Sequence record: ON556632.1
DNA from: Escherichia phage hz69
DNA: 42,991 nt
Reading direction: 5' to 3' (one strand)
The stretch's first letter is position 1; each line of letters begins with the position of its first letter. Made by a program: the position numbers and the translations under genes. Shown piece after piece: positions 21,760-23,922 of this stretch. A model generated the notes under the pieces. That model saw only the letters and a program-made list of their open reading frames with translations. It was not told the DNA's origin and ran no database searches.

Positions 21760-21788
21760 TTGCACACCCCAATATAATAGGGTACTAT
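21760..21788 (+). promoter_or_regulatory. class-2 promoter copy A: TTGCAC - 17 bp (ACCCCAATATAATAGGG) - TACTAT
   Basis: 32-bp element TTGCACACCCCAATATAATAGGGTACTATTCA at 21760-21791; RBS GAGGAA and ATG 21817 follow. Confidence 0.7.
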
Positions 21789-21816
21789 TCACATGTAACT
21801 TACTGAGGAAATAATT

Positions 21817-22143
21817 ATGCGTAAATTAGTACTAGCTCTGGGTTTTATGTCTTTTGCTACTTTTGGGTCTCCGTGCGAACAGGTATTTAGTGAATCTGTT
21901 CTTATGACTTCTGGTGTGCTCGAGAAAGCCGACCCTACTATTGTAAAGGCGTTCAAGGACTCTACAGTTCGCGAGTGTGAAGCCGCCGTAGAGGTTGGTA
22001 AATCGGGTCTACCTCCGCAAGCCGTAACATACACGGTAATACGTTCGGTAGAGAAAAACGGAGACGCGTTTTACAGCCTACTGACAGCCACCCGTCTGCA
22101 AATGGTAATGACTGGATGGGCAATAGGTGCAGAAAGTAAATAG
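21817..22143 (+). CDS. small secreted/periplasmic protein (108 aa, N-terminal signal peptide)
   Basis: MRKLVLALGFMSFATFGSPC looks like a signal peptide (no clean lipobox); AT-rich codon usage; first gene of moron island. Confidence 0.6.
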   Translation: MRKLVLALGFMSFATFGSPCEQVFSESVLMTSGVLEKADPTIVKAFKDSTVRECEAAVEVGKSGLPPQAVTYTVIRSVEKNGDAFYSLLTATRLQMVMTGWAIGAESK

Positions 22144-22207
22144 TTGCCTTTATTTAAAGGAATCCACTGTGGTTAAATAGGACAAATCCTAAGCACGAGG
22201 AATAAGC

Positions 22208-23338
22208 ATGGCCCGGAAGAAAATAACCGACGAACAGTTGCAGGAAGAATTGAACGCCGGGATGAAGAATATAGATATAGCCCGTAAATACGGCATCTCA
22301 GACCGCGTAATTCGTATACGTAAAGCGAAACTGGCTAAGAAAGGCGTAGGTCACGGGCGCGACGTCAGCCACCTTGTGCCAGACGGCTACAAGATTAAAG
22401 GGACGTCGTCACTTGTTGACGAGTTCGGCAATACTAAACTGCAATGGGTTAAGACTGACACCGATGCCGAACGTCAGGTCGAGTTGATGAAAGCCGTAAT
22501 TGAAGGTATGAAGTCGGAGATTACCCCCGTTGCTCCTGTTAAAGCCGTTCGCGCCAAACGGGACGACAAGCTACTCAACCTTTACACTGTGTCTGATTTC
22601 CATCTCGGTATGCTGGCCTGGGCCGACGAGAGTGGCGACGACTGGGATATGAAGATTGCAGAAGACCTGTTCTCCCGTTGGTTCGATGCGGCATTCCAGA
22701 AAGCACCGGATGCGGGGACTGGGGTTATTAACCTGCTGGGCGACTTCGCGCACTTCGATAGTCTGGTTGCCGTTACACCTGCAAGCGGTCACGCCCTTGA
22801 CGCCGACACCCGTTACCAGAAACTTGTCCGCTACATGATTCGCATGGTCCGCCGTGTTGTCGATATGGCGCTGGTTAAGCATAAAAATGTTCGCTTGCTT
22901 ATCGTGCAAGGGAATCACGACGAAAGTGGCATGATTTGGTTAGCTGAGATGTTCAGTACGCTATACGACAACGAGCCGCGTGTGTTCGTCGATACGTCGC
23001 CGGATGTTTACAAGATGGTGCAACACGGCAAAACGACGTTGTTCTTTCACCACGGGCATAAAGCACGCTTCGACGCTATCGAGCCTGTTATGATTGCCAA
23101 GTTCCGTAAAGCGTTCGGCGAGAGTGTTTACAGTTACGCCCATGTAGGCCACCTGCACCATCAGAAGATTGTAGAAAGCCGTAACATGATTGTTGAGCAA
23201 CACCGCACCTTAGCGGCTAAAGACGCCTACGCCTCCCGCGGCGGGTGGATGTCGGGGCGCAGTGCCAATGTAATTACTTATAGCGCCGAATATGGCGAGG
23301 TCGCACGTTTAACTATTTCACCGGAGATGCTGAGATGA
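22208..23338 (+). CDS. N-terminal HTH fused to calcineurin-like metallophosphoesterase (Mre11/SbcD-like motifs)
   Basis: HTH NIDIARKYGISDRVIRIRKAK; phosphoesterase motifs SDFHLG, LLGDFAHFD, VQGNHDESG, HHGH, HVGHLHH; RBS ACGAGGAA. Confidence 0.75.
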   Translation: MARKKITDEQLQEELNAGMKNIDIARKYGISDRVIRIRKAKLAKKGVGHGRDVSHLVPDGYKIKGTSSLVDEFGNTKLQWVKTDTDAERQVELMKAVIEGMKSEITPVAPVKAVRAKRDDKLLNLYTVSDFHLGMLAWADESGDDWDMKIAEDLFSRWFDAAFQKAPDAGTGVINLLGDFAHFDSLVAVTPASGHALDADTRYQKLVRYMIRMVRRVVDMALVKHKNVRLLIVQGNHDESGMIWLAEMFSTLYDNEPRVFVDTSPDVYKMVQHGKTTLFFHHGHKARFDAIEPVMIAKFRKAFGESVYSYAHVGHLHHQKIVESRNMIVEQHRTLAAKDAYASRGGWMSGRSANVITYSAEYGEVARLTISPEMLR

Positions 23339-23535
23339 AAGATATGTATGAATGCACCGATGTGAGTCCGTACGCGGAGAAAAATGGATTCGAAGTAGGT
23401 GCTGTATATGAAGGGACCACCCTAGAGAATGGCGACGTAAGAATGTATTCGCCTAAATATCGCAGCTTCTTTGAAATAGGCAACATTAACGAGTCAGGCA
23501 TAGCCAGATTTAAGAGAGTTAACAGTGACAAATAA
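23335..23535 (+). CDS. hypothetical protein (66 aa)
   Basis: ATGA-coupled to the phosphoesterase gene. Confidence 0.5.
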   Translation: MKDMYECTDVSPYAEKNGFEVGAVYEGTTLENGDVRMYSPKYRSFFEIGNINESGIARFKRVNSDK

Positions 23536-23755
23536 ATACAACCGCACAATGACAAACACCCACGGCAGCACTATGACAGTAGACGTTTATGATGTTCTCC
23601 GTGCTTTCGACATCCGGGACCCGGCACTACAGCACGCATTGAAGAAACTGCTGTGTATGGGCCTTCGCGGGCACAAAGACACCGGAACCGACTTAGCAGA
23701 AGCAATCGAAAGTCTGGAGAAGTTACGGGAATATCGAAGCAATATTGACGAATAA
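23525..23755 (+). CDS. hypothetical protein (76 aa; start uncertain)
   Basis: Track start is GTG 23525 with AAGAGAG upstream; in-frame ATGs at 23549 and 23574. Confidence 0.4.
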   Translation: MTNKYNRTMTNTHGSTMTVDVYDVLRAFDIRDPALQHALKKLLCMGLRGHKDTGTDLAEAIESLEKLREYRSNIDE

Positions 23756-23769
23756 CTACGAGGTATTTT

Positions 23770-23892
23770 ATGAAACTCATTATTAACTTCTTTAAAGCCT
23801 TAACAGGTAACGATTTTGAGATTGACGGAGGTTGGCTAGTGTATGACCCTACTTTTGATACTTGGTTGTGGCATAAAGAGAAACCTCGATGA
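23770..23892 (+). CDS. hypothetical small protein (40 aa)
   Basis: ATG 23770 with RBS ACGAGG; hand-translated MKLIINFFKALTGNDFEIDGGWLVYDPTFDTWLWHKEKPR. Confidence 0.3.
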   Translation: MKLIINFFKALTGNDFEIDGGWLVYDPTFDTWLWHKEKPR

Positions 23893-23922
23893 GAAAAAGG
23901 CCCCAAAAGGGGCCTTAGTTTT
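23893..23922. terminator. bidirectional terminator (AAGGCCCC-AAAA-GGGGCCTT), near-identical to the one at 11891-11920
   Basis: 8-bp GC stem; ends the + moron island and the - major tail gene. Confidence 0.8.

Follow-up and report, generated by a model that had tools for sequence, protein, structure and literature searches.

A reverse-oriented gene cassette in the tail region of Escherichia phage hz69 is probably a lineage-fixed transcription unit of the Guernseyvirinae

Morons, in the Juhala/Hendrix definition quoted in PMC3594210, are independent transcription units that have been added to a phage genome. One of them, gp15 of phage HK97, is a superinfection-exclusion moron that adjoins the chaperone and tape-measure genes within the tail operon (Cumby et al. 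2012, as summarised in PMC3594210). Here we describe a cassette of five + strand genes (g1 to g5) that lies within the − strand tail region of Escherichia phage hz69 (GenBank accession number ON556632.1), the 42,991 nucleotides of which are called the window throughout. As far as that summary describes gp15, the first slot of the cassette resembles it in that a small envelope protein is encoded beside chaperone and tape-measure genes, with its own promoter and terminator and an atypical base composition. The differences are that gp15, a YebO-like protein of the inner membrane, is expressed from a prophage, whereas g1 is predicted to be secreted and helical and has no sequence similarity to gp15, and that the cassette is on the strand opposite to the tail genes and also carries a resident enzyme gene. 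Bas70, an annotated member of the phage group in which g1 is found, shows no integrase or repressor. A second point of comparison is the T4 Imm family (PF14373, Imm_superinfect), as a member of this family fills the same slot, behind the same promoter, in most relatives of the window. Imm is membrane-embedded, whereas a soluble, periplasmic location is predicted for the product of g1.

Judged by its genes, the window is a Kagunavirus-like coliphage of the Guernseyvirinae. The gene order over its whole length is that of the annotated Kagunavirus Bas70 in reverse orientation, the + strand encoding replication functions, the − strand the head and tail, and the right end carrying a group of small genes. 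A megablast search with positions 21650–23950 returned 352 phage records, mainly Jerseyvirus and Kagunavirus, among them 228 from Salmonella and 106 from Escherichia phages. We consider it probable (roughly 0.6) that the cassette is a lineage-fixed, reverse-oriented transcription unit of the Guernseyvirinae in which early-type genes are placed amid the late tail region. It is an ordinary mosaic, made up of one resident gene for a DNA-metabolism enzyme and of swappable accessory genes, and not a new multi-gene system.

This was established by comparing 48 loci with the chaperone and tail tube genes as flanks, which were drawn from IMG/VR and GenBank and include the window itself. The + strand open reading frames (ORFs) were clustered, families were counted using hidden Markov models (HMMs), and loci of distant relatives were sought by single-protein scans. 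In all 48 loci, g2 was found at this position and, as its base composition is also that of the genome average, the cassette was not inserted recently. The remaining genes vary independently of g2, occurring in more than 25 combinations, and hence g2 has no constant set of partners. The first slot holds a member of the Imm family in 31 loci and of the g1 family in 15, and in no case both; one of the two loci with neither appears to encode a different single-pass membrane protein. The junctions of this swap are precise, with the shared sequence extending through TACTATTCAC and resuming just before the ribosome-binding site (RBS) of g2. Further along, g4 is present in 29 loci and a T4-type deoxynucleoside monophosphate (dNMP) kinase (phrog_139, E=3e-46) in 16, again never together. 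A HAD_PNKP phosphatase gene (PF25109, E=9e-20) lies directly downstream of g2 in 17 loci; it precedes the dNMP kinase gene in every locus that has one (16/16), and the one further locus combines it with g4. Additional occupants were g3 (eight loci; elsewhere replaced by the HAD_PNKP phosphatase), HNH_3 endonucleases (six), Rha/Ant proteins (five), g5 (two; an annotated coding sequence in vB_Eco_K-01), a small membrane protein (two), and a 68-amino-acid protein that was found in eight loci by HMM and in four by ORF clustering. The HAD and dNMP kinase genes also follow a g2 homolog in the unrelated phage lineages L100 and L104 (L numbers denote the records compared), and thus form a recurring three-gene neighbourhood, while g4 follows a g2 homolog in L097. 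The window is without a HAD gene.

The original prediction, which was made from the sequence of the window alone, had described five + strand genes between oppositely oriented tail genes, with a promoter of their own and a bidirectional terminator. This layout was confirmed, with all five ORFs present between the tube and chaperone genes. GAGG(A) Shine-Dalgarno sequences are found 5′ of g1, g2 and g5, the ATG of g3 overlaps the stop codon of g2 (ATGA), and g4 begins with a GTG 11 nt inside g3. The cassette genes share 87–95% DNA identity with their closest GenBank relatives, and the changes are overwhelmingly at third codon positions, indicating that g1 to g4 are real genes. Synonymous and non-synonymous codon changes numbered 16 and 2 in g1, 83 and 9 in g2, 10 and 2 in g3, and 28 and 1 in g4; the 3 and 1 changes in g5 are too few for a judgement. 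The guanine-plus-cytosine (GC) content is 0.468 for g1, 0.519 for g2, 0.413 for g3, 0.481 for g4 and 0.374, the lowest of the five, for g5, compared with 0.509 for the whole window and 0.53–0.54 for the flanking tail genes. The first gene had been predicted to be AT-richer than its neighbours, and it is, as are g3 and g5 to a greater extent, but g2 is not. Of the features expected of a moron, a GC content unlike that of the surrounding genes was found for g1, g3, g4 and g5 but not for g2, and a separate promoter and terminator are present at the sequence level, as a recurrent motif and a hairpin that folds on both strands. Absence from close relatives applies singly to g1 (present in 15/48), g3 (8/48), g4 (29/48) and g5 (2/48), but not to g2 or to the cassette. 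The description as a moron therefore suits the small genes g1, g3 and g5, and to a lesser extent g4, which are AT-richer, sporadic and precisely swapped, but neither g2 nor the cassette as a whole.

The putative promoter of the cassette is a motif, TTGCACACCCCAATATAATAGGGTACTATTCA, that begins at position 21760 and recurs almost unchanged at 30656 (+ strand) and 42547 (− strand), with a looser copy at 41138 (− strand). It lies at a constant distance of about 108 nt from the chaperone start in 48/48 loci, with 0–3 mismatches in the 38 Kagunavirus-type loci, and the form in Jerseyvirus (TTGCAT-N17-TATTAT) retains both the palindrome inside it and the distance between the hexamers. Compared with the relative L001, identity is 97.6% in the intergenic DNA, which is thus more conserved than the coding DNA (87–95%). 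A generic sigma-70 scan proposed TTCACA-16-AATAAT at 21788–21815, but this candidate overlaps the RBS and start of g1, and the conserved and recurrent motif was preferred. A hairpin, GCGGGAACCACCCGC followed by TTTT (+ strand), is found at 21697–21722, between the chaperone start and the cassette promoter and within the 97.6%-conserved DNA. It may act to insulate + strand transcription, or it may form a structure in the 5′ untranslated region of the chaperone mRNA.

Inside the promoter motif is an operator-like palindrome that, in the form (TG)AATAG-N4-CTATTCA, was counted 10 times in the window, where 0.15 occurrences would be expected. Two copies precede the gene for a 71-amino-acid XRE-type protein, the Bas70 homolog of which is annotated as a transcriptional regulator. 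At 3016 and 5454, strong promoter-like sites on the + strand have the palindrome within their spacers; they are surrounded by genes with homologs in Bas70 that are replication genes, and the copies at 30672, 41107 and 42516 belong to the copies of the promoter motif. This distribution suggests that the palindrome may serve as operator for a phage regulon to which the cassette belongs, with the XRE-type protein as the candidate regulator. In symmetric bidirectional promoters, divergent transcription starts from shared −10 regions. The three strong motif copies all lie at points where the coding strand switches, which makes bidirectional firing possible at these sites, and TAnTAT-like −10 hexamers can be read from the palindrome on either strand. 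The likeness is incomplete, as the candidate − strand promoter for the chaperone operon (GTTACA-17-TATATT, 21799–21771) has its −35 hexamer within the swapped DNA, where it is not conserved in the Imm-type loci.

At the other end, the cassette and the tail tube gene have an intrinsic terminator in common. Its hairpin, which can be seen in almost every one of the 48 loci, has an 8-bp stem with six G-C pairs and a predicted folding energy of −17 to −18 kcal/mol whichever strand is folded. A GC-rich hairpin followed by a U-tract, as expected of rho-independent termination, is present on each strand, with tails of UUUUUCU on the − strand and UUAGUUUUA, which is weaker, on the + strand. An identical stem, AAGGCCCC-GTTT-GGGGCCTT, is found at 11894–11913, between the last long + strand ORF (10298–11755) and the first long − strand ORF (11918–13732), indicating that the hairpin design is reused at a convergent junction.

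The resident gene, g2 (phrog_704, E=2e-166), encodes a protein with a helix-turn-helix (HTH) domain at residues ~1–45, a beta-hairpin/helix linker at 61–104 and a metallophosphoesterase (MPE) domain at 119–376, consistent with the fusion originally predicted. The motifs D130xH132, G178D179, G235N236H237, H282 and G314HxH317 correspond to those of the superfamily that binds two metal ions (DxH, GD, GNH[DE], H, GHxH). As none of these metal-binding and catalytic residues varies among 40 homologs with 33–50% identity, it can be argued that g2 is catalytic. The AlphaFold (AF2) model has a predicted local distance difference test score (pLDDT) of 90.2, and Foldseek matched it with a probability of 1.0 to many metallophosphoesterases, led by Rv0805 (8e-9), PolD DP1 (4.5e-8) and Mre11 (2e-7), and then GpdQ. 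The known calcineurin-like enzymes (Rv0805/CpdA, PolD DP1, Mre11/SbcD, GpdQ and the ‘Nuclease MPE’ 6NVO) have the same fold and five metal-binding motifs, but g2 differs from them in its N-terminal HTH and linker. A further difference is the lack of an SMC-like partner (Rad50/SbcC), none of which adjoins g2 in the 48 loci or is annotated in the Bas70 genome. No additional domain past the MPE core was seen in the secondary structure of the model, and the Mre11 match was no better than those to Rv0805 or DP1. Profile matches to Mre11/SbcD (E~0.5–0.7) and to ‘Nuclease MPE’ (E~0.5) were weak. Among the 40 family members scanned, the HTH domains are of several Pfam types; that of g2 resembles sigma-70 region 4 and the GerE/LuxR HTH, with a weak match to a ‘late transcriptional activator’ PHROG, and some database records annotate g2 homologs as a transcriptional regulator. 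The homologs in Campylobacter and Flavobacterium phages align only from residue ~65–76 and hence appear to be without the HTH region. Overall, we infer that g2 most likely encodes a DNA-bound phosphodiesterase or nuclease of phage DNA and nucleotide metabolism.

The g2 family is large, with 2,039 phage records found by tblastn and 4,636 clusters at 50% identity (1,152 of them at E<=1e-30), and its members, which come from T1-like, Jersey-like, Jedunavirus and marine Vibrio phages among others, are mostly 375–420 amino acids long. Homologs were found downstream of helicase, primase or OB-fold (single-stranded DNA-binding protein) genes in Drexlerviridae (AugustePiccard), in Jedunavirus KpV52 and in a Vibrio phage. 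In the PS2-type coliphages, a differently organised group of ~44 kb, a 75%-identical copy is located behind the lysis genes, close to where the deposited record ends (4992–6134 in L108, Escherichia phage vB_EcoS_PS2; also L044–L057). This copy suggests that the g2 gene moves between phage lineages.

The g1 family (phrog_14165, E=1e-55) is narrow, with only 22 clusters among 5.8 billion proteins and 98 phage records in GenBank. For about half of the clusters a source name or a long contig is available, and these are ~31–45 kb phage-sized contigs or Salmonella phage, including Salmonella phage Jersey (gp25). The protein has a hydrophobic signal-peptide N-terminus, as predicted (pLDDT <50 over residues 1–14), invariant cysteines C20 and C54 and a conserved C-terminal helix. 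In the AF2 model (pLDDT 82) it is all-helical, with four to five helices and with Cys20 paired to Cys54, and it is predicted to be located in the envelope as a soluble periplasmic protein. The fold had no match in the PDB (E>2), BFVD returned its own family and weak matches to uncharacterised phage proteins, and no match was found in Pfam, even at E<=10, or in NCBIfam, including to DUF3718, a name that one GenBank record uses. In phage Schulenburg, the slot-1 gene has a match to PF14373 (E=8.7e-14). Superinfection exclusion, which the original prediction had offered as one of several possible functions, is our best guess for g1, because of the strict alternation with Imm and the precedent of HK97 gp15, and it fits with the Imm-family protein found in this slot in most relatives.

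The product of g4 (phrog_2452, E=9e-37) matches the C-terminal ends of profiles of 180–250 amino acids and represents a widespread domain (773 phage records) with the motif IDVYxVL...QHAxKKLLxxGxRGxKD. The domain occurs alone or fused, near Holliday-junction resolvase and replicative helicase genes in one phage and near RdgC in another. Two fusions are in Acinetobacter/Pseudomonas phages. In one (L081, 2105–2689), the domain is C-terminal and the N-terminal segment is common to phrog_23238, which has DUF3310 at its C-terminus; in the other (L082, 2456–3253), the domain is N-terminal and is followed by a cysteine-rich region. DUF3310 is a domain of the T7 gp1.7 nucleotide kinase, and one GenBank record gives this name to g4. 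By eye, the order of motifs in g4, HY...[IV][DE]V...KK/Y.L..G.[RK]G...D[LV].[EK]A, is like that in DUF3310, though no kinase activity is known for the g4 domain. Because of the alternation with the T4-type dNMP kinase in the same slot and of the segment shared with phrog_23238, the connection to DUF3310 is kept as a weak lead. No Pfam or PHROG match and no detectable relatives outside the phage group were found for g3 and g5.

On the reading that we favour, the cassette would be switched together with the early/replication regulon by the XRE-type regulator, and not with the tail genes. The HTH of g2 would tether an intact binuclear metallophosphoesterase that acts on DNA, where it could, for example, degrade host DNA or process replication intermediates and so supply dNMPs to a kinase. 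The secreted, disulfide-bonded g1 protein would act at the periplasm or inner membrane to keep out the DNA of a second phage, a role assigned to it from the equivalence of the slot, as a T4 Imm-type protein would play it in most relatives. As g4 alternates with the T4-type dNMP kinase, it might conceivably substitute for it, and g3 and g5 would be exchangeable small promoter-distal genes.

Several points weigh against this reading. The only transcriptome of a relative places the Imm-type gene in the ‘late’ class, in a coarse three-class scheme and with a peak beyond 100 min (PMC12645636), which conflicts with control by an early regulon. Promoter activity at 21760 is suggested by conservation and recurrence, and the −35 hexamer TTGCAC is weak, matching the consensus at only three of six positions, which is why the generic sigma-70 scan missed it. 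Fisher tests gave p~1e-10 for both the g1/Imm and the g4/kinase exclusion, values that are uncorrected for shared ancestry. The equivalence of slots is circumstantial support for the role of g1, which has no detectable similarity to PF14373 or to any known exclusion protein. The Pfam scores of g2 are under the gathering thresholds (21.5 bits against a cut-off of 27 for PF12850; 18.9 against 21.5 for PF00149). Foldseek template modelling (TM) scores were 0.35–0.5 at 10–16% identity with no subfamily standing out, and the top match is the cyclic-nucleotide phosphodiesterase Rv0805 (TM 0.36–0.52), so that the fold search does not separate a nuclease from a small-molecule phosphodiesterase. The identification of g4 with DUF3310 was not upheld, as PF11753, which matches T7 gp1.7 at residues 122–184 with E=4.5e-23, had no match to g4. 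Alignment of the g4 family by hhalign to gp1.7 alone and to 120 gp1.7 homologs gave a probability of only 0.1–0.5%, although these profiles are shallow (Neff ~2) and might miss a remote homology. Finally, no experiment on any cassette protein was found in the literature, and in particular no experimental study of the g2 enzyme in Guernseyvirinae or Drexlerviridae.

That the five genes instead arrived by horizontal transfer as a single moron island and function together, in anti-defence or host interaction, was the substance of the original prediction and now seems unlikely. The separate promoter and terminator, the AT-rich small genes and a content that differs between close relatives would all be expected of such an island. 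However, g2 is universal at the site and has an average GC content, the other genes vary independently of it, and no cassette protein matched the PADLOC defence models, which together argue against both a recent acquisition and a co-functioning accessory system. The g2 family is also widespread, and the four other types of phage that were inspected have it among replication, early or lysis genes. Conservation in homologous phages as structural or assembly components had been named as evidence against the island. Conservation was indeed found for g2, but as a probable DNA-metabolism gene rather than a structural one.

Other functions for g2 were also considered. The best fold match, Rv0805, is a class III cyclic-nucleotide phosphodiesterase, GpdQ also scored high and the catalytic motifs are intact, as they would be if g2 were a signalling-nucleotide phosphodiesterase that disarms CBASS, Pycsar or type III CRISPR by cleaving cyclic mono-, di- or oligonucleotides, with the HTH serving autoregulation. 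We regard this as improbable. Known anti-signalling enzymes are sporadic accessory genes, whereas g2 is in every Guernseyvirinae locus examined and beside replication or lysis genes elsewhere; moreover, the HTH is common in the family, DP1 and Mre11 score about as well as Rv0805, and the neighbours belong to dNMP metabolism. An equally improbable alternative is that g2, together with HAD_PNKP, heals ends as a 2′,3′-cyclic phosphodiesterase/3′-phosphatase, repairing tRNA or DNA cut by anticodon or defence nucleases. Metallophosphoesterase domains do carry out end healing in bacterial Pnkp and lambda phosphatase, and the HAD_PNKP gene lies immediately downstream of g2 in about a third of the loci and also in other lineages. 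On the other hand, the kinase beside it is of the dNMP-kinase type and not a polynucleotide kinase, no ligase is annotated in Bas70 and the window lacks the HAD gene. Least probable of all is that g2 is mainly a transcription factor at the divergent promoter, a late activator of the chaperone/tape-measure operon in which the phosphoesterase domain is a sensor or relic. The resemblance of its HTH to activator domains, the regulator annotations and the position of the gene adjoining a divergent promoter with a palindrome are in keeping with this, but the invariant catalytic and metal-binding residues are not. In the other types of phage that were inspected g2 is not beside tail genes, the HTH is apparently missing from the Campylobacter and Flavobacterium homologs, and the palindrome is better explained by the XRE-type regulator, with its two copies before that regulator's own gene.

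There is also an outside chance that the g2 family holds an activity undescribed for phages, possibly as an enzyme that, while tethered to DNA, degrades immune signalling nucleotides or eliminates a particular DNA-end or nucleotide danger signal, and, separately, that g1 defines a new class of periplasmic exclusion proteins travelling with the Guernseyvirinae tail module. In any case, the widespread HTH-metallophosphoesterase is a worthwhile biochemical target. The comparison provides a gene-by-gene map of a cassette that is carried by hundreds of deposited Kagunavirus and Jerseyvirus genomes. In the deposited records its genes are mostly labelled ‘hypothetical protein’, ‘phosphoesterase’ or ‘DNA repair exonuclease’. 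The lineage-fixed unit proposed here makes testable predictions, namely that g1 and Imm-type proteins are interchangeable as exclusion factors, that g4 substitutes for the dNMP kinase, and that the palindrome and the 71-amino-acid XRE-type regulator connect the cassette with the early regulon. Phages of this group serve in therapy, in biocontrol and as synthetic-biology chassis, and there is practical value in knowing which slots are dispensable and swapped at defined junctions and which gene is resident.

The features discussed are listed in Table 1. Also on the − strand in the flanks are the downstream partner ORF of the chaperone gene (PF23812) and the tape measure gene.

Table 1. Positions of the cassette, its flanking genes and related features (in the window unless another record is named)
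Feature	Position	Strand	Remarks
g1	21817–22143	+	108 aa; predicted secreted, all-helical; slot 1
g2	22208–23338	+	376 aa; HTH-metallophosphoesterase; resident core gene
g3	23335–23535	+	66 aa orphan; swap slot
g4	23525–23755	+	76 aa; widespread phage domain
g5	23770–23892	+	40 aa orphan ORF with RBS; coding status weakly supported
Tail assembly chaperone gene	21236–21652	−	PF08748, phrog_15027; divergent from the cassette promoter region
Tail tube gene	23921–25093	−	PF18906, E=5e-39; converges on the cassette terminator
Putative promoter motif	21760–21791	+	32 nt, TTGCAC-N17-TACTAT; conserved and recurrent
Operator-like palindrome	21776–21791	+	AATAG-N4-CTATTCA; inside the promoter motif
Palindrome copies upstream of XRE-type gene	2980–2995, 3024–3039	− (gene)	Two copies
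Other palindrome copies	5462–5477, 30672–30687, 41107–41122, 42516–42531		
XRE-type regulator gene	2736–2951 (to 3044 with upstream palindromes)	−	71 aa; candidate regulator of the cassette promoter
Bidirectional intrinsic terminator	23897–23916	both	AAGGCCCC-AAAA-GGGGCCTT; common to cassette (+) and tail tube gene (−)
Sister reversed cassette	30656–31103	+	Head/lysis region; same promoter motif at 30656–30687
HAD/kinase neighbourhood examples	L006 4039–4527; L007 5128–6167		
Eta_0060	L110 5195–5530	reversed	Between tube and chaperone; 111 aa, signal peptide, two cysteines

Two outgroups were compared. Serratia phage Eta has a tube protein 68% identical to that of the window and the same structural gene order, but its replication and recombination module is lambdoid. 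In the 37 of its 42.7 kb that were searched there was no match to g2, and in this single comparison g2 thus accompanies the Guernseyvirinae set of replication genes and is missing where the set is lambdoid. The sole reversed gene in its tube/chaperone interval, Eta_0060, has a weak match (13 bits) to the g1 family, and the depositors' annotation of this interval includes divergent promoters and bidirectional terminators. In the more distant Vibrio phage 1.226.O (tube 34% identical), small genes come directly after the tube gene, and next is a gene whose long coiled-coil product matches the tape measure; a reversed cassette is absent. Taken together, these comparisons indicate that the structural module brings with it a reversed slot encoding an envelope protein.

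A second reversed cassette, in the head/lysis region of the window, has the same promoter motif and contains two ORFs, of 55 amino acids (30713–30880) and 74 amino acids (30870–31094). It ends in a hairpin, read by eye at 31083–31103, with the AAGGCCCC/GGGGCCTT stem and a 5-nt loop. An equivalent single reversed gene is found at this position in both Bas70 and Serratia phage Eta.

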